A stretch of DNA of 40,915 nucleotides from an uncultured Candidatus Saccharibacteria bacterium. Lineage in GTDB: Bacteria > Patescibacteriota > Minisyncoccia > GWC2-36-17 > CAYHJU01. Below are positions 2,756 to 19,405 of this stretch, piece after piece. Location of the stretch: NCBI GenBank assembly GCA_964357175.1, contig CAYHJU010000003.1, forward strand, positions 1 through 40,915, given 5' to 3'. The notes under the pieces are model-generated. The model was not told the DNA's origin. It worked only from the letters and a program-made list of their open reading frames with translations, and did no database searches. A program made the translations under genes and the position numbers. Numbering within the stretch: the first letter of the stretch is position 1; each line of letters starts with the position of its first letter.

Positions 2756-2820
2756 ATGTTTCAATCTCAAAAATAAAATCTCAAATCTCAAGGCCTTTAG
2801 AATAAAATCGAAAGGCTTTT

Positions 2821-2924
2821 TGTCTGTAGTCGGGAGACAGGTAGCAAAAGACCTCGAATGCTTTCGCCACGAGGTCTTCGGCCGACTTAGATCAAAGGGG
2901 ATCTTGCGATCCCGCTCATCTAAG
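2821..2924 (-). ncRNA. Candidate structured leader RNA upstream of typA
   Basis: Stem GGGATC-GCAA-GATCCC inside CTTAGAT/ATCTAAG, and stem AAGACCTCG...GC-GAAA-GC...CGAGGTCTT enclosed by GTCGG/CCGAC. Both loops are GNRA only on the transcribed strand. Confidence 0.45.
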
Positions 2925-2927
2925 GAC

Positions 2928-2955
2928 AGTATAGCAGATTATAAGTTCTTGTCAA
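2928..2955 (-). promoter_or_regulatory. typA promoter GGGG-TTGACA-16-TGnTATACT
   Basis: -35 at 2950-2955 and -10 at 2928-2933 on the minus strand. Confidence 0.75.
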
Positions 2956-3013
2956 CCCCTCACGGTAATGTGTATACTCATATTGCACTTTTAAGATAAT
3001 TTGATTCCGTCAA

Positions 3014-3048
3014 TAAAACCGCCCTGAGCTTGTTGAGAGGTGGTTTTA
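3014..3048. terminator. Possible hairpin terminator downstream of secY
   Basis: TAAAACCGCCCT...AGAGGTGGTTTTA imperfect inverted repeat; no clear U tract. Confidence 0.35.
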
Positions 3049-3071
3049 AGATTTTTCAAATAATTTATAAA

Positions 3072-3206
3072 CCCCCACACCTAATAAGCGCAAAATTCTT
3101 GACAAAGTTAAGCTTGAAAGAATTAACTTGTGGAATTATTAATAAAACGTGTTTATTAAATTGGTAACTGAATTTTAAAACTTTGCGCGCTTATTAGGTG
3201 TGGGGG
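3072..3206. mobile_element. 135-bp MITE with 20-bp perfect TIRs and a 4-bp TAAA target duplication
   Basis: CCCCCACACCTAATAAGCGC at 3072-3091 and its reverse complement at 3187-3206. TAAA at 3068-3071 and 3207-3210. No ORF. Confidence 0.8.
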
Positions 3207-3217
3207 TAAAATCCAAA

Positions 3218-4489
3218 CTAGAATCCTTCGTATTCTCTCATTGTGAGCTGGGAATCAATTTGTTGCATGCTATCCAACAAAACTGCCACTACGATTAAAA
3301 TGGCGGTGCCGCCGATTGTAAGAGTTTTAAAATTAGTCGCATATTGCACCACTAAAGGAATGACAGCCACCGTTCCCAAAAATACCGCTCCCCAAAAAGT
3401 GATGCGTCTTATAATATGGGAAAGATAATCCATGGTGGACGCGCCTGGGCGAATGCCCGGAATAAATCCGCCTTGCTTTTGCATGTTCTCGGCAATGGCT
3501 TTGGGATCAAACACTATGGCCGTATAAAAATAAGTAAACGCCACCACCAGGACAAAGTAAAGCATACCGTAGACTAACTGATTCTGAAAAAACACTTGCA
3601 TGGACCTGGCAAAATTTGCCAACCAAGGTATTGGGGTCGCTGATAAAATTCCCGCTAAAATATTGGGAAACAATAAAAGCGAGAGCGCAAAAATAATAGG
3701 TATCATTCCCGCCTGATTAACACGAATAGGTAGATAAGTAGAAGATCCGCCATATACACGGTTGCCTCTGATTCTTTTCGCGTAAGCCACCGGAACGTTT
3801 CTTTGAGCCTCTGTGATAAACACCACCCCACCCACCACGATGACCGTAATGGCCAAAAATGCCACGTAAGAGGGAATTTGACTGGGATCATAGGTAGTAA
3901 TCAATTGTTTTAAGTCCTGAGGCAAGCCCGCAACGATACCAGCAAATATCAAAAGAGAAATACCATTGCCTATGCTTTTTTCAGAGATCAATTCTCCAAG
4001 CCACATTAAAAGAATTGAGCCGGCAGTAGCCACTATTATATTAAAGGCGATGCTAAGAGGTGTCAGCGCGCCAAGAAGATTCTGGCGCTGAAGGATAACG
4101 ATCAAGCTGTATGCCTGAAGTAGCGCCAGAGGAACAGTCAAAATGCGAGTGTATTGGTTAAATTTGCGACGTCCCGCCTCTCCTCCTTCCTGATACATTT
4201 CTTTTAGAGAAGGAAAGATCATGGTTAAAAGCTGTAAAATGATAGATGAGGTTACATATGGACCAACTCCGAGCATCATCAAAGACATCTGGCTCAAAGC
4301 TCCTCCGGAAAAAAGGTTGATCATTCCGAAAATCTGACTGCCTTCAAAATACGCCTTGATCTGATCGACGTCTATGCCGGGAATCGGGATGGACGCGAAC
4401 AATCTAAAGACAACCAAAATGCCCACAACATAAAGTATTTTATTGCGGATCTCTTTTACTTTAAAAATTTGATATATTTTTTCCCACAT
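3218..4489 (-). CDS. secY: Preprotein translocase SecY
   Basis: VFRLFASIPIPG, LGVGPYVTSSII, SIGNGISLLIFAG, QAGMIPIIFA, FIPGIRPG. Start ATG 4489. Confidence 0.98.
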   Translation of the reverse strand: MWEKIYQIFKVKEIRNKILYVVGILVVFRLFASIPIPGIDVDQIKAYFEGSQIFGMINLFSGGALSQMSLMMLGVGPYVTSSIILQLLTMIFPSLKEMYQEGGEAGRRKFNQYTRILTVPLALLQAYSLIVILQRQNLLGALTPLSIAFNIIVATAGSILLMWLGELISEKSIGNGISLLIFAGIVAGLPQDLKQLITTYDPSQIPSYVAFLAITVIVVGGVVFITEAQRNVPVAYAKRIRGNRVYGGSSTYLPIRVNQAGMIPIIFALSLLLFPNILAGILSATPIPWLANFARSMQVFFQNQLVYGMLYFVLVVAFTYFYTAIVFDPKAIAENMQKQGGFIPGIRPGASTMDYLSHIIRRITFWGAVFLGTVAVIPLVVQYATNFKTLTIGGTAILIVVAVLLDSMQQIDSQLTMREYEGF

Positions 4490-5811: not shown

Positions 5812-6357
5812 TTAGGAGGACGCTGTAGCGGCTTTCTTTCCGGCTTTACGTCTGATTTTTTCTCCTAAATAATGTATGCCCTTGCCTTTGTATGGTTCGG
5901 GTTTTTTGACTGCCCGAATATTTGCCGCCACCTGCCCAACCAATGTCTTGTCAAAACCCGATACTGTTATAGTATTTTTTTCTACGGAAATTTTAATGCC
6001 TTCCGGAGCTTCTAGCTCAACAGGATGAGAAAATCCGACAGTTAAAGTCAACTTATTTCCGGACATGGCGGCGCGATAACCCACCCCTTCTATTTCCAAT
6101 TTTCTTTCAAATCCTTCGCTGACACCTTTTACCATATTGGCCACCAGCGCGCGTGTTAGCCCCCACAAAGCCGGAGTAGATTTAGTTTTTTTCAACGGAG
6201 TTATTATTAATTGATCGCCCTCAAGATTAATATCCACTTCAGGCAAAAAACTATACGAAAGCTGTCCCAACTTACCTTTTACGATAATATTGGGTTTCTC
6301 CAATGTGATTTGCACATCTTTGGGTACGCTTATTGGTTTTTTACCTATACGGGACAT
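5812..6357 (-). CDS. rplF: 50S ribosomal protein L6
   Basis: MSRIGKKPI, GVGYRA, KPEPYKGKGI. Confidence 0.98.
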   Translation of the reverse strand: MSRIGKKPISVPKDVQITLEKPNIIVKGKLGQLSYSFLPEVDINLEGDQLIITPLKKTKSTPALWGLTRALVANMVKGVSEGFERKLEIEGVGYRAAMSGNKLTLTVGFSHPVELEAPEGIKISVEKNTITVSGFDKTLVGQVAANIRAVKKPEPYKGKGIHYLGEKIRRKAGKKAATASS

Positions 6358-6487
6358 AATATAATAAAATTTTTAATTTCTAATTTCTAAACAATTTTCA
6401 ATGATTTAATTTTCAAACTTTTTAATTAGAAATTGAGTAATTGGAAATTGTTTGAAAATTGAGAATTGATAATTGAAAATTAATAAT
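6358..6487. repeat. AT-rich 7-nt-periodic hairpin element, copy 1
   Basis: AATTTCT and GAAAATT units forming an imperfect inverted repeat; about 8 differences from copy 2 over about 133 bp. Confidence 0.85.
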
Positions 6488-6877: not shown

Positions 6878-7007
6878 GATATAATAAAATTTCTAATTTT
6901 TAATTTCTAAACAATTTTTAATGATTTAATTTCCAAACTTTTTAATTAGAAATTGGATAATTGGAAATTGTTTGAAAATTGAGAATTGATAATTGAAAAT
7001 TAATAAC
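6878..7007. repeat. AT-rich 7-nt-periodic hairpin element, copy 2
   Basis: Near-identical direct repeat of 6358-6487. Confidence 0.85.
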
Positions 7008-14049: not shown

Positions 14050-15243
14050 CTACACGATTATCTTGGAGACCGCCCCGGCCCCGACTGTCTTGCCGCCTTC
14101 GCGAATGGCAAATCTCTGTTTTTCCTCGAGCGCCACAGAAGCGAGCAGTTTAACCTTTATGGAGATAGTATCACCTGGCATAACCATTTCAACGCCTTCC
14201 GGTAAAATAACTTCACCAGTCACATCAGTGGTGCGGATATAAAACTGTGGTTTGTATCCTTTGAAAAATGGAGTGTGTCGTCCACCTTCTTCTTTGGTCA
14301 AGACGTAAATTTCACCTTCAAATTCAGTATGGGGATTAACACTTCCGGGTTTCACGATAACCTGTCCGCGCTCCACGTCTTCTTTCTTGAGACCGCGTAA
14401 AAGTATTCCGGCATTATCTCCAGCCACACCTTCATCCAAAGATTTGTTGAACATTTCAATTCCGGTAACAACAGTTTTTTGTGTTGGACGAAGTCCGACT
14501 ATTTCAACTTCATCGTTTACTTTGATTTTTCCTCTCTCAACACGTCCAGTAACTACTGTGCCACGTCCTTCAATTGAGAAGACGTCTTCAATGGCCAATA
14601 AAAACGGCTTGTCGATTTCACGAGTTGGTTCAGGAACATACGAATCCAAAGCCGCCACTAAATCCAAAATTGGCTTAACGGCCGGATCATCCAATGACTT
14701 GGCCTCCAATGCTTTAAGAGCAGAGCCGCGGATAATAGGAGTTTCGTTTCCTGGAAAATTATATTTGGACAAAAGTTCACGAATTTCTACTTCCACCAAG
14801 TCAACAAGCTCCGGATCATCCACCATATCAACTTTGTTTAAAAATACTACTATAGAAGGCACGCCTACCTGACGAGCAAGCAAGATGTGCTCTCTGGTTT
14901 GGGGCATTGGACCGTCAGCCGCAGAAACAACCAAAACCGCGCCGTCCATCTGAGCGGCACCTGTGATCATGTTCTTTATATAGTCGGCGTGTCCTGGAGC
15001 ATCAATGTGAGCGTAGTGCCTATTTTCGGATTCATATTCAGAGTGATGCAAGGCAATAGTAATACCACGAGCTTTTTCCTCAGGAGCATTGTCGATTTGA
15101 TCAACTCCTTCTTCCTTTTTAGCCAAACCCTTCATGAAAAGCACGTGGGTAATAGCCGCGGTCAAGGTAGTTTTACCATGATCAACGTGACCAATAGTAC
15201 CGACGTTCACATGAGGTTTTGTGCGTTCAAATTTTTCTGCCAT
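14050..15243 (-). CDS. tuf: Elongation factor Tu
   Basis: [41 protein letters not shown]. Confidence 0.99.
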
Positions 15244-15315
15244 ATTTTTATTTCTTAAATTATATTAAATTATAAATAATTATGTAATTTAGTTTATTAA
15301 ATTAACATCTATTAC

Positions 15316-15343
15316 ATTTTATACAAAAAAATCTCCTTGTCAA
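15316..15343 (-). promoter_or_regulatory. tuf promoter TTGACA-16-TAAAAT
   Basis: -35 at 15338-15343, directly abutting a mini-MITE. Confidence 0.6.
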
Positions 15344-15395
15344 CCCCGTTAAATAATTTTCTTCGAAAATTGGGACTTTGCCCCATTTAACAGGG
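15344..15395. mobile_element. 52-bp mini-MITE of the CCCCGTTA family with TCAA target duplication
   Basis: CCCCGTTAAAT...ATTTAACAGGG (1 mismatch). TCAA at 15340-15343 and 15396-15399. Confidence 0.7.
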
Positions 15396-15418
15396 TCAAC
15401 CCTCTGGCGCCCTCTCGC

Positions 15419-15688
15419 CTATATGGGCAGGTCAGACAAGCTAAACTTAATATCTTTTTCTTCCGAAACATCATAGGCGATCTCTTCTTCCAATTCGTCC
15501 AACATCAAATTTTGAACCGCATCATCTGACGCATCAACCTCAACGCTTTTGCTCAATTCACTTTCAGCTGGAATCAGTTTTTCAAAAAACGAATACTCCA
15601 TGATGACGTACGCCGGCTTTTCATTCTCCAATATCACTGCTGATGACGCTCCGTTTTTTAGTAACTGCTTTATCTTATTAAGCAACAT
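15419..15688 (-). CDS. Hypothetical protein with Phd/YefM-like N-terminus and acidic tail
   Basis: AVILENEKPAYVIM resembles the Phd VI.xNGKP.AV signature; no toxin gene is adjacent. Confidence 0.6.
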   Translation of the reverse strand: MLLNKIKQLLKNGASSAVILENEKPAYVIMEYSFFEKLIPAESELSKSVEVDASDDAVQNLMLDELEEEIAYDVSEEKDIKFSLSDLPI

Positions 15689-15819
15689 AAAATAATTTCT
15701 AATTTTTAATTTCTAATTTCTAAACAATTTTTAATGATTTAATTTTAAAACTTTTTAATTAGAAATTGAGTAATTGGAAATTAATTGAAAATTGAGAATT
15801 GAAAATTGAAAATTGAAAA
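15689..15819. repeat. AT-rich 7-nt-periodic hairpin element, copy 3
   Basis: Same core as copies 1 and 2 (TTTCTAAACAATTTTTAATGATTTAATTTT...AGAAATTGAGTAATTGGAAATT) with extra GAAAATT units. Confidence 0.85.
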
Positions 15820-17931
15820 CTATCTCTTCTTGCCTTCAACTATCTGTTGAGTAATATTCTGGGGCACTTCTTCATAGTGGCTAAATTCCATCGTGTAAGA
15901 AGCGCGGCCTTCCGTCATAGAGCGAAGCTGTGTTGAATATCCAAACATATTTGCTAACGGAATTTTAGAATCCACCACCCTCATCTGTCCGCGCTCACCC
16001 ATATTATCTATTCTGCCGCGTCGAGAGTTTAAATCGCCTGTCACATCTCCCAAGAAATTTGCTGGAGTCACAACCTCAACTTTCATAATCGGCTCAAGTA
16101 AAATAGGCTCGGCTCTTTTTGCGGCTGATTGTAGCGCCATAGATCCGGCAATTTTAAACGCCGCCTCGGAAGAGTCCACATCGTGATATGATCCATCGTA
16201 AAGCGTTACAGCTACGTCCTGCAGAGGAAATCCAGCCACCACACCCTTTTCCATCGCCTCTTTCACGCCTTTTTCAATAGGAGAAATAAATTCCTGAGGA
16301 ATAACGCCCCCTTTAATGTCGTTGATAAATTCAAATCCTTTTCCACGTTCAAGCGGCTCAATACGAATACGGCAATGGCCATATTGTCCGTGTCCACCCG
16401 ATTGCCTGATATATTTTCCCTCCGCTTCAGCTTCACTTTTAATCGTTTCTTTATAAGCTACCTGTGGCTTTCCTGTATTGACCCCCACATTAAATTCACG
16501 GAACATTCTGTCTACCAAAATTTCCAAATGCAACTCACCCATTCCGGAAATAATCGTTTCAGCCGTTTCCTGGTCCACCTTAACTCTAAAGGTCGGATCT
16601 TCATCCAATAATCTCTTGAGCGCCAATCCCATTTTTTCCTGGTCAGCTTTTGTTTTAGGCTCTACTCTCAAAGAGATGACCGGTTCCGGAAATTCTATTT
16701 TTTCTAAAACAACCATATGGTCTGGATCGCAAAGGGTGTCCCCTGTTCTAGTGTCTTTAAGTCCCACTGCCGCGGCAATTTCACCCGCCTGAACCTCTTC
16801 AATTTCTTCGCGCTGGTTGGCGTGCATGCGCAAAATTCTTCCAATTCTTTCCTTATTGCCACTCGTAGCATTTACAATATAAGATCCCTTATTTAAAACT
16901 CCTGAATAAACTCTAAAATATGTTAAAAATCCAACATATGGATCAGACGCCACCTTAAAAGCTAACGCGGCAAATGGCGCGTCATCTTTGGCTTCCACTG
17001 TAATTTCCGAATTGTCTTTAGAATTTATAGCTTTAAGCGGTGGCACTTCCAATGGCGATGGCAAAAAGTCCGCCACTCCGTCCAAGACCAATTGAACCCC
17101 TTTGTTTTTTAAGGAAGATCCGCAAAGGACAGGATTTATTTTTGACTCAACAGTTAAGCGATGTATTGCCTGACGCAACTCTTCTAGACTAATCTCCTGG
17201 CCATTTAAATATTTTTCCGTTAGCGCATCATCTTCTCCGGCAATCGCCTCAACCATTTTTGCCCTCCAAGACTCTGCAGACCCCTTCAAATCCTCCGGAA
17301 TTTCTTCCAGTACAACTTTTTCTCCTTTTTCTCCTTCAAATCTCACCGCTTTCATTCTTAATAAATCAATCACTCCGGAAAATTTTTCTTCCAGGCCTAT
17401 TGGTATTTGAATTGCTACCGCCTTGGGATTTAAACGCTCATGAATGGACGCCAAGCTTTTTTCAAAGTCAGCTCCAATTCTATCCAATTTATTTATAAAA
17501 CAAAGTCGCGGAACATTATATTTGTCCGCTTGATGCCACACAGTTTCTGATTGAGGCTCTACTCCCGCCACACCATCAAAAACCACCACCCCTCCATCCA
17601 AAACGCGCAAAGATCTTTCAACCTCTGCCGTAAAATCCACATGTCCTGGAGTATCAATAATGTTAATTTTTATCTTTCTTTTTTTAGCTTCTTCTGGACT
17701 AGTTACATAAGTCGGGGACCAAAAACAAGTAGTGGCGGCAGAAGTAATAGTGATACCTCTTTCTCTTTCTTGTTCCATCCAATCCATAATCGCCTCACCC
17801 TCATGCACCTCGCCGATTTTGTGGGAAATTCCCGTATAAAACAAAACCCGCTCAGAAGTAGTGGTCTTGCCGGCGTCTATGTGAGCAATAATGCCTATAT
17901 TTCTTACTTTATCTATCGAATAATCTCTCAT
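15820..17931 (-). CDS. fusA: Elongation factor G
   Basis: [52 protein letters not shown]. Confidence 0.99.
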
Positions 17932-17933
17932 AT

Positions 17934-18401
17934 TTACCAGGAAAAATGAGCGAACGCTTTATTGGCTTCAGCCATTTTGTGCGTATCTATTTTCTTTTTA
18001 ACGGCCGCTCCCTCATTTTTGGACGCTAAGATTAATTCATCTGCCAATCTTTCTGCCATTGGCTTGCCCTTTTTAGACCTAGAGGCATTAAGTATCCAGC
18101 GAAAAGCCAAGGCCTGTTTTCTTTCTCCTCTCACTTCTCTCGGCACTTGATATGTGGCACCGCCTATTCTGCGGGACTTAATTTCCAAAAGAGGCGCGGC
18201 ATTATTCAAGGCCAAATTTAAAACTTCCAATGGCTCCTTTTTGGTTATTTCCTGTACCTTATTTAGGGCGGCATACATCACCTTTTCCGCCACGGATTTT
18301 TTTCCATTCTTCATTACACTATTTATAAACTTTGCCACCACAATGCTCTGGTATTTAAAATCTGGCTCAACACCTGATCTTTTTTTGATTTGTCTTCTCA
18401 T
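17934..18401 (-). CDS. rpsG: 30S ribosomal protein S7
   Basis: [25 protein letters not shown]. Confidence 0.98.
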
Positions 18402-18411
18402 AAATGCTTAA

Positions 18412-18822
18412 TTATTTGGGTTTTTTAGTTCCGTATTTAGATCTCTCCTGCTTGCGGCCCTCCACTCCTCCCATATCTAAAACTCCGCGCACGATATGAT
18501 ATCTCACTCCCGGCAAATCTTTCACGCGCCCTCCCCGGATCATTACCACCGAGTGTTCTTGCAGGTTGTGTCCTTCGCCTGGAATATAAGCGGTTACTTC
18601 CATACCGTTGGTAAGACGCACACGCGCCACTTTGCGCAAAGCTGAGTTTGGTTTTTTGGGCGTAGTGGTTGTTACTTTTGTACAAACCCCTCTTTTAAAG
18701 GGTGAGAAAAAATGAGCCGGTTTATTTTTCAATACATTAAACCCGCGCATCAAGGCTGGCGTCTTGGATTTGGCGGTAATTTTCTTACGAGGCTTTTTAA
18801 TTAATTGGTTTATTGTTGACAT
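18412..18822 (-). CDS. rpsL: 30S ribosomal protein S12
   Basis: [39 protein letters not shown]. Confidence 0.99.
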
Positions 18823-18882
18823 AATAAAATATAGAGATTATAAATCCTGCAAAAAGGTGCAGGATAAACACAATTATTATTA

Positions 18883-18910
18883 AATTTAGCAGAATAAAAG
18901 AAGATGTCAA
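18883..18910 (-). promoter_or_regulatory. str operon promoter TTGACA-16-TGnTAAATT
   Basis: -35 at 18905-18910, directly abutting a MITE; -10 at 18883-18888. Confidence 0.7.
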
Positions 18911-19021
18911 CCCCGTTAGAAGTTCAAACATGTCTTGGATGTTTAATCTGCCAAAAGGCGAAGCCGACTATCGTCTCAAATTGACTTTTTATTAACGATA
19001 TAATTAAAACTTCTAACGGGG
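18911..19021. mobile_element. 111-bp MITE of the CCCCGTTA family with TCAA target duplication
   Basis: Perfect 14-bp TIRs CCCCGTTAGAAGTT (18911-18924) and AACTTCTAACGGGG (19008-19021). TCAA at 18907-18910 and 19022-19025. Confidence 0.8.
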
Positions 19022-19085
19022 TCAACCCCACTCTTTTGATGCCACATTAAAAGAACAAGAATTTTAAAAAATATAGAAACTTTTT

Positions 19086-19286
19086 TAAACGCTTTTTATC
19101 TCTCAGATGCTTGTTCAGATAATTTAAGATTCATTTTCGCTTTGATTCAAAACTCGTCCGCCCTGGGCGGACTCAAACAGGTTGAATCAATCCGCCCAAG
19201 GCGGACATATCCGCCTTGGGCGAGACCGCTCAAATTCATCATTAAATTATATCTTCACTGCGCAAATGTTCGATAAAAAGCGTTTA
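19086..19286. mobile_element. B-type nested-palindrome element holding three TCCGCC-NNN-GGCGGA mini-palindromes
   Basis: Perfect 15-bp arms TAAACGCTTTTTATC / GATAAAAAGCGTTTA. Inner arms GATAATTTAA/TTAAATTAT and TTGATTCAA/TTGAATCAA. Mini-repeats at 19157-19171, 19191-19205 and 19210-19224. Confidence 0.7.
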
Positions 19287-19340
19287 GGGATTAATTAAAA
19301 TTTATCTTTAAAATCATGGGAATTAAAAATGCGAAAAAAT

Positions 19341-19367
19341 AAAAACCCCAGCCATTTTGACTGGGGC
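19341..19367 (-). terminator. Intrinsic terminator
   Basis: GCCCCAG-TCAAAATGG-CTGGGG then TTTTTATTTTTT on the minus strand. Confidence 0.7.
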
Positions 19368-19405
19368 ATCACATTAACACCCACGACCGTTACAGCTCTT
19401 AAGTC

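Follow-up and report, generated by a model that had tools for sequence, protein, structure and literature searches.

The comparisons described here show that two short hairpin sequences upstream of the tuf and rpsL genes of an uncultured Candidatus Saccharibacteria bacterium are mobile elements that entered both promoters at the -35 box and rebuilt it on insertion. The stretch of DNA analyzed (the window, 40,915 nucleotides) is contig C3 of a 758-kb genome in 30 contigs, which the names of matching contigs place in the Hainich aquifer population. In our explanation, both sequences belong, as judged from their ends, flanks and distribution, to a widespread family of tiny hairpin elements, in which they are non-autonomous and resemble miniature inverted-repeat transposable elements (MITEs). 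They were inserted at TTGA, probably through a preference for (GGG)TTGA|C, and would have been mobilized in trans by a tiny GIY-YIG nuclease. We assign a probability of about 0.75 to this explanation as a whole.

The first element (52 bp, 15344-15395) consists of an outer 11-bp inverted repeat with one mismatch (CCCCGTTAAAT/ATTTAACAGGG) and two inner hairpins, and the second (111 bp, 18911-19021) has perfect 14-bp inverted ends (CCCCGTTAGAAGTT…AACTTCTAACGGGG) and an AT-rich interior that includes the 21-mer GAGACGATAGTCGGCTTCGCC on the minus strand; no strand is assigned to either element. Their end consensus is CCCCGTTA…TAAC(A/G)GGG, and the single-strand folding of both far exceeds that of shuffled controls (z ~ -4). 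On the plus strand, the sites read TCAA|CCCCGTTAAAT…ATTTAACAGGG|TCAA at tuf and TCAA|CCCCGTTAGAAGTT…AACTTCTAACGGGG|TCAA at rpsL. At tuf, one copy of the tetramer (15340-15343; TCAA on the plus and TTGA on the minus strand) supplies bases 1-4 of the -35 hexamer of the promoter TTGACA-16-TAAAAT (15316-15343, minus strand), and the other copy (15396-15399) lies upstream of the element in promoter orientation, with AGGG before it on the minus strand. At rpsL, one copy of the tetramer (18907-18910) supplies the TTGA of the -35 hexamer of the str operon promoter TTGACA-16-TAAATT, which has a TG-extended -10 (18883-18910, minus strand), and the other copy (19022-19025) has GGGG before it on the minus strand (19026-19029). 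Thus, a preliminary description of this DNA was correct in the position of the elements and their TCAA flanks, and in identifying the duplicated tetramer as the TTGA that belongs to the -35 boxes of tuf and rpsL. The sequence CCCCGTTA by itself is not significant in the window, with 3 matches against 0.78 expected and at least 3 in 5 of 100 shuffles; the elements stand above chance because the genome holds ~31 copies and because relatives have empty sites.

The key evidence comes from these empty sites. The nearest species genomes are only of the same order, and closer relatives were sought through homologues of pilC, of ftsK and of an 89-amino-acid open reading frame (ORF) located between fusA and tuf. 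At the tuf promoter, which is a near base-for-base match in the relatives with an empty site, L062 reads cgaGGGGTTGACAgggagatttttttgtaTAAAAT (excerpt …cgaGGGGTTGACAgggagatttttttgtaTAAAATgtaatagatg…) and L063 reads GGGTTGACAagaag…TAAAAT (…cgaaGGGTTGACAagaagattttattgtaTAAAAT…), whereas the window reads GGG-TTGA-[52 bp]-TTGA-CAaggagatttttttgtaTAAAAT (…agaGGG-TTGA-[52 bp]-TTGA-CAaggagatttttttgtaTAAAATgtaatagatg…). At the rpsL promoter, L065 and L066 read GGGTTGACAtcttttt…TAAATT (…ggagctGGGTTGACAtctttttttattctgcTAAATTtaataataattg…), and the occupied site in the window reads GGGG-TTGA-[111 bp]-TTGA-CAtcttc…TAAATT (…gagtGGGG-TTGA-[111 bp]-TTGA-CAtcttcttttattctgcTAAATTtaataataattg…). A third case is the promoter of an M29 peptidase gene (copy at C11 2134), where L102 and L103 are empty with ttTTGACAgc…TATAAG (L102, …aaatttTTGACAgctaaaatttagtgtgaTATAAG…), and this genome has …tttTTGA-[52 bp]-TAGA-CAgtcaaaatctaacgtgaTATAAG…. 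A single TTGA without an element is thus present at the orthologous sites in L062, L063, L065, L066, L102 and L103, and deletion in silico of the element together with one tetramer yields the sequence of the relative at 3 of 3 promoters (tuf, rpsL and M29). As a consequence, the tetramers are target duplications and the promoters predate the insertions. The concern that the TCAA repeats might belong to the element ends does not hold for copies of this class, in which the flanks are direct rather than inverted and the empty sites have one copy.

As read from these alignments, the comparison shows that the insertions at tuf and rpsL postdate the split from the nearest sampled relatives, and that entry was at the TTGA opening the -35 hexamer with a 4-bp duplication. 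In both cases, the alignments show the downstream TTGA still joined to CA and to the -10, so that TTGACA-16-TAnnnT is regenerated, and only the DNA upstream of the -35 replaced, by the element's own …TTTAACGGGG end. The regeneration of the hexamer, as proposed earlier, agrees with the single TTGA at the empty promoters of relatives. Because their sequence is conserved relative to these empty sites, the occupied promoters presumably still work. Different Hainich samples provide 11 contigs from this population, and both elements are present in all 11, with 99.5-100% identity and without indels, and both insertions are therefore fixed in that population.

Exact and relaxed searches together with BLAST retrieved ~31 copies across this genome with the ends CCCYGTTA(A/G)A…T(T/C)TAACRGGG. 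The copies are 52-153 bp long, in size groups of about 52-63, 97-114 and 139-153 bp, have no coding capacity, vary in interior and length and occur in both orientations. Among relatives, short copies are found in 13 of 41, with a patchy distribution in which two genomes of one genus hold 5 and 0. The inverted ends common to the copies, the target duplications set against empty sites and this patchiness support the earlier view that these are MITE-like mobile elements.

Two classes of flanks dominate. The TTGA class has seven copies, at C3 15344, C3 18911, C13 17886, C23 1184, C26 1916, C11 2134 and C16 1875; in C11 2134 the second TTGA is mutated to TAGA, making the promoter hexamer there TAGACA, and C16 1875 is a left end only. 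All seven adjoin TTGAC(A/T), 16-17 nt and TAnnnT, reading outward from the element, and the genes 3' of them are tuf, rpsL, rpsP (S16), secE-nusG and those for a beta-CASP ribonuclease, the M29 aminopeptidase and a small membrane protein. The second class has 22 copies with TTTA on one side (22/22) and TGAA, usually followed by T, on the other (20/22); these flanks form no direct repeat, are also seen in distant genomes, and place the copies a few bases from stop or start codons, either where two genes adjoin closely or in a 5' leader. The sole clean empty site of this class is that of C11 6319, where L102 reads gattaatTTATGgcaagt, and this genome and L103 are occupied and read gattaatTTA[143 bp]TGAATATGcct. 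It follows from this comparison that TTTA is native and that TGAA(T) arrived with the element, and the class resembles, on the strength of this site and the constant flanks, insertion 3' of a fixed tetranucleotide. At another site, L103 has a solo right end only.

Two further copies lie in other settings. A 98-bp copy at C13 3529-3626, flanked by TTTA/TTTG, is inside a 301-codon open frame (2774-3679, minus strand), and the reading frame is kept because copy and duplication add 98 + 4 = 102 nt. At C10 1610-1723, inverted ends CCCCGTTAGAAA…TTTCTAACGGGG with the flanks CTCG and TCAA bracket the only tRNA-Ser(CGA) gene of the genome (1624-1711); an element may have carried this gene along, or its ends may act as a stem for processing.

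Thirteen short copies share a layout of an 11-bp outer stem, an AAT…ATT hairpin and then a short GC-rich hairpin. When placed on this common structure, 94.9% of cells are paired, compared with 82.9% after shuffling and 31-50% with partners slid. Two-sided changes occur at nine pairs (38 cells), one-sided G-T states are almost absent, and copies within one genome have differing hairpins that are each perfectly complementary. This pattern fits recognition of folded DNA, or the copying of one arm from the other, and does not fit RNA. In promoter orientation, the order is GC hairpin, AT hairpin and then TTGACA in 4 of 4 short promoter copies, a small number. Among longer copies, the exact 21-mer GAGACGATAGTCGGCTTCGCC recurs at window 18957-18977 (minus strand) and at C23 1228-1248 in the same orientation to the promoter, and in the genome it is confined to the ~112-bp copies at the rpsL and rpsP promoters.

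A candidate for the enzyme emerged when 301 genomes of the class were screened for pairs of these ends spaced 240-270 bp apart. Eleven of the 301 contain elements of 263-285 bp that are bounded in this way; in 8 of the 11 elements read, an 80-87-amino-acid GIY-YIG ORF is enclosed by the inverted ends and is the only ORF of at least 60 amino acids, and the remaining 3 yielded no such ORF. The ORFs follow the pattern MFYTYV.QSKK..WYTG.T…REKYLKSGMGKRYLKNRLK.FLSLTG; three 86-amino-acid proteins that were scanned match PF01541 over residues 1 to ~70 (E 8e-15 to 5e-18), and among solved structures the UPF0213 proteins 1zg2 and 1ywl come nearest. Five of the 8 ORFs (…LTG type) extend through the terminal repeat, so that the stop codon comes from the flank where the flank is TGA or TAA. 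The flanks of the ORF-bearing elements are the 4-bp duplications TCAA, TGAA (twice), TTCA, TGGA and TAAG, and two are of the TTTA…TGAA type.

Based on this association, we suggest that mobility would be provided in trans by a single-domain, Ssn/YhbQ-like GIY-YIG nuclease of ~86 amino acids. Because the hairpins are kept by compensatory changes that are Watson-Crick only, the enzyme probably recognizes a folded DNA hairpin or cruciform. It would make staggered cuts at the folded ends, and the host would finish the reaction by repair or ligation.

A different mover, with the GIY-YIG gene as cargo or fellow traveler, would make sense of a genome with ~31 elements and no cognate GIY-YIG copy; it might be an HUH transposase of the IS200/IS605 type that acts on hairpins, a recombinase, or the host's own replication or repair machinery working on palindromes. 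IS200/IS605 insertion sequences use an HUH tyrosine transposase, depend on hairpins, insert beside a short specific sequence, make no target duplication and have tiny REP and PATE derivatives between genes. The TTTA…TGAA class is similar to them in that it behaves like duplication-free insertion 3' of a fixed left tetranucleotide. By contrast, an exact 4-bp duplication flanks both copies in the window and 36 of the 61 from other genomes, and the 263-285-bp elements in 11 genomes carry identical ends around what is, in 8 of 11, a sole GIY-YIG ORF. Moreover, no HUH gene and no other enzyme was found linked to the ends. We therefore consider a different mover unlikely.

The link to promoters can be largely traced to the choice of target. 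To describe flanks beyond this genome, we used 61 copies of the GTTAGA type from ~25 Patescibacteria genomes, picked by their ends alone. Among the 36 with perfect 4-bp duplications, the tetramers are, counted on either strand, TTGA/TCAA (13), TAAA/TTTA (10), CGAG/CTCG, TGAA/TTCA and CAAA/TTTG (3 each), TCCA/TGGA (2), and TGTA/TACA and TTAG/CTAA (1 each). TTGA is thus the commonest duplication, at 13/36 compared with a background of 1.3%, a ~28-fold enrichment (p ~5e-16, with the tetramer frequencies of this genome as background; the other p-values given here likewise take their backgrounds from this genome only). C is the next base in 10 of these 13, and a -10-like hexamer lies 15-18 nt past the hexamer in 8 or 9. 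A GTDB-wide scan for TYTAACGGGGTTGAC gave 37 hits with a matching left end, in Patescibacteria, Planctomycetota, Omnitrophota, Saccharibacteria and other metagenome-assembled genomes; 29 have TTGA on both sides, most of them with a -10 at 16-18 nt, and a plausible -10 is present in ~23 as read by eye from the listed sequences, or in 16 by a strict pattern. When the TTGA sites of this genome and the others are pooled, C follows in 17 of 20 and GGG precedes in 8 of 20 (background 0.7%). These frequencies point to a sequence preference, and the GGG-TTGA-C target resembles the inserted element's own junction, …TAACGGGG-TTGA-CCCCGTTA… (…GGGG-TTGA-CCCC…).

This genome, which is 89% coding, contains 9830 TTGA sites (1072 intergenic) and 1300 TTGAC sites (188 intergenic), and TAnnnT is already present at 15-18 nt in 89 of the 188 intergenic TTGAC sites (47%). 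If TTGA followed by C is preferred and most insertions into coding DNA are lost, promoters should therefore account for about half of the surviving insertions. From these site statistics, we suggest that the integration step prefers (GGG)TTGA|C and that targeting of promoters is only apparent, in that the TTGAC sites surviving in such a genome would mostly be -35 boxes. The observed fraction at promoters is above the baseline (6/7 here and 14/17 overall, p ~0.003), an excess that does not appear large enough to need promoter sensing; the preference for (GGG)TTGA|C and survival in intergenic DNA only would explain most of the promoter link.

Active sensing of promoters, by way of the sigma factor or RNA polymerase at the -35 or of cruciform-favoring negative supercoiling on the upstream side of highly active genes, would replace the bare TTGA|C as the signal. 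This excess of correctly spaced -10 boxes is what it would predict, and of the 7 TTGA copies, 4 are at the strongest promoters of housekeeping genes (tuf, rpsL, rpsP and secE-nusG); in L065, a different inverted-repeat element adjoins the same rpsL -35. However, the baseline already gives about half at promoters, TTGA insertions without a -10 are present in L087, L231 and L241, and members of the family are also found within genes and at TAAA, TGAA, CGAG and other tetramers. Active sensing is accordingly improbable in our estimate, and we favor the preference for (GGG)TTGA|C.

In light of these results, the claims of the preliminary description on targeting stand in part. Its targeting of promoter flanks applies to the seven TTGA copies, all of which adjoin a -35 and a -10, and not to 22 of the ~31 copies, which have TTTA…TGAA flanks beside start and stop codons. 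Likewise, the survey of flanks that it called for, with enrichment of CA and of a -10, is borne out for TTGA sites (C in 17/20, -10 in 14/17), and the same 22 copies have other flanks. The G-run before the -35 is frequent (8/20 sites) but not required, since TTTT precedes TTGACA at the empty site of the M29 promoter. The family does not specialize in promoters: one copy lies in frame within a gene, another surrounds a tRNA gene, and other genomes have TAAA, TGAA, CGAG and further duplications. Finally, "safe-harbour targeting" describes an outcome rather than a shown adaptation, because a TTGA|C preference in an 89%-coding genome largely suffices.

Several observations weigh against the explanation favored here, in addition to the single-genome background of the p-values. 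The 22 TTTA…TGAA copies lack a 4-bp duplication, and when duplications of 2, 3 and 4 bp and moved boundaries were tried, none suited all 22; at C11 6319, the insertion relative to L102 is the core plus 6 nt. This behavior implies that no single simple cut-and-paste rule covers the whole family. The 11 population contigs show no polymorphism, all being occupied at both sites. An autonomous copy with these ends was sought in this genome and not found: none of its seven GIY-YIG hits lies inside CCCYGTTA ends, and the six small genes with this domain belong to tRNA cassettes and to an element with CCCCCACACC ends. As no ORF-bearing copy is present here, the elements are only possibly still mobile, and the GIY-YIG protein is a candidate for their enzyme. 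GIY-YIG nucleases hydrolyze DNA and do not rejoin it, and we know of no transposition chemistry for them.

A conserved functional module that does not move, such as a palindromic binding site of a regulator, a promoter accessory of the UP-like or cruciform kind or a stem for RNA processing, would account for the constant placement relative to the -35, for the compensatory changes that maintain the hairpins and for the copy that exactly brackets the only tRNA-Ser(CGA) gene in the manner of a processing stem, but it is very improbable given that orthologous promoters in relatives manage without an element, that 4-bp duplications, a patchy distribution, varying interiors and lengths and both orientations occur, and that the G-T/G-U intermediates expected of RNA are lacking. 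A structured RNA or processing stem was ruled out by the empty sites, the two orientations and the lack of G-U states, and an Rfam scan of 15000-19400 with E up to 10 gave sub-threshold chance hits only. An element bringing its own promoter was rejected, as the copies are followed, past TTGA, by unrelated sequences that are native in relatives. An integron attC site was also rejected, no integrase having been sought; it is expected to read RYYYAAC…GTTRRRY on the recombining strand, and here GTTAAAT…ATTTAAC is found on both strands, in reversed order.

Among known systems, Ssn is probably the closest in its working. Ssn proteins are single-domain GIY-YIG proteins of about 90-94 amino acids that bind the NTS/SRM hairpin repeats in single-stranded form and cleave a few nucleotides upstream of them (Chenal et al. 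2025, Nat Commun, PMC11893778). Their genes have a repeat on both sides, and the repeats are scattered genome-wide, mostly in intergenic regions; the authors liken NTS-ssnA-NTS to an insertion sequence and draw comparisons with IS200/IS605 and REPs (PMC11893778). What was demonstrated is cleavage of single-stranded DNA and an effect on transformation, with transposition put forward as a hypothesis only (PMC11893778). Apart from that paper, we found neither GIY-YIG MITEs nor -35-targeting elements in the literature, and no published account of an association with the -35. The elements described here share with Ssn the size and domain of the protein, the gene between hairpin repeats and the scattering of the repeats, and some inner hairpins (AATCCCGCAAAGCGGGATT) are similar to the NTS core ATTCCCGCG…GCGGGAAT. 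They differ from it in that the conserved part is the outer CCCCGTTA(A/G)A inverted repeat around variable hairpins, and in that target duplications, empty sites and a target preference are shown here by sequence comparison and not in PMC11893778. The SRM pattern HGTCWY N0-2 YYVSBRH N0-5 WNVSBRG N0-2 RNCYNB has 0 matches on both strands of the whole genome, and shuffled sequences give 0-3. The evidence for membership is thus mixed, and we do not count the family as a member of the Ssn system. The occupied and empty orthologous sites, with their exact 4-bp duplications, offer direct comparative evidence for the transposition of hairpin repeats that are linked to tiny GIY-YIG nucleases.

Short, gene-less, multi-copy MITEs are familiar from other bacteria. 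The Correia/NEMIS elements of Neisseria, RUP and ERIC have inverted repeats and target duplications, are adjacent to genes and may influence promoters; in Correia elements the duplication is TA, and their presumed ancestors are insertion sequences of the DDE type. The present family shares with them the short, gene-less, multi-copy, inverted-repeat build. It differs from Correia elements in the 4-bp duplication, the TTGA|C site and a tiny GIY-YIG nuclease as the only linked protein, and from such bacterial MITEs in general in interiors that are free to vary provided that the hairpins persist. The Rickettsia palindromic elements are small and can sit in frame within genes, as does the copy at C13 3529-3626; they have no sequence relation to the family, and we know of no -35 preference or GIY-YIG link described for them.

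Thus, the design that we suggest provides a way for a mobile element to occupy key promoters of a minimal genome without breaking them, in that the duplicated tetramer is identical to the first four bases of the -35. If this is true, a built-in harmless docking site lets elements persist before tuf and ribosomal-protein operons in genomes of less than 1 Mb. We speculate, tentatively and at somewhat below even odds, that these elements form a distinct class of prokaryotic transposons with a ~86-amino-acid GIY-YIG nuclease as sole protein, autonomous units of ~275 bp, recognition of a hairpin or cruciform rather than of a sequence, 4-bp duplications and (GGG)TTGA|C docking that rebuilds the promoter. 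The rule (GGG)TTGA|C is testable, and the enzyme/substrate pairs are candidates for biochemistry and possibly for tools. In annotation, G-runs and palindromes just upstream of a -35 in Patescibacteria call for caution, as they may be element ends and not regulatory sites.

At the third promoter of this kind in the window, that of typA, GGGG-TTGACA-16-TATACT (2928-2959, minus strand) is a vacant target of the preferred kind, as the preliminary description had suggested; the hexamer through the -10 runs from 2955 to 2928, GGGG is at 2956-2959, and neither an element nor a remnant was seen alongside. The tuf, rpsL and typA sites are the top promoter-like (sigma-70-like) matches on the minus strand within 16.5 kb, and NCBIfam confirms the identity of the three genes. 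Next to the rpsL promoter in L065, the closest relative, a different inverted-repeat element (CCCAGCTCCAGTTTTGA…TCAAAACTGGAGCTGGG, 1005-1121) ends exactly at the -35 box, and the window retains only the homologue of its right arm (catcaaaagagtgggg, 19026-19045). The G-run preceding the rpsL -35 may, by this homology, be the end of an older element.

Around tuf, the 89-amino-acid ORF (15419-15688, minus strand), which is acidic, lies between fusA and tuf, has relatives with 75% and 53% identity and has no match in Pfam or NCBIfam. Relatives have a gene of the 23S_rRNA_IVP family between rpsG and fusA, and the window has no such gene there. The spacer between the 89-amino-acid ORF and fusA (15689-15819) contains another multi-copy repeat of ~110 bp, which is also present at 6354-6467 and 6888-6987, recurs at least 10 further times in this genome and many times in relatives belonging to the same class, and is unrelated to the CCCCGTTA family. 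At the pilT-pilC junction, L074 has a CCCCCACACC-ended element with a TAAA duplication (3385-3500) and this genome has a CCCTGTTAAAT element (C1 41006-41160), from which it follows that different hairpin families hit the same junctions; L074 also has a solo TTCACCTTGTTAAATAA end immediately before the start codon of the next gene. Lastly, a GC-rich hairpin cluster (GTCCGCCCTGGGCGGAC, CCGCCCAAGGCGG and others) lies at 19110-19260 in the window, and because four independent assemblies of the same population terminate at 19112-19138, this cluster suggests a further repeat family.

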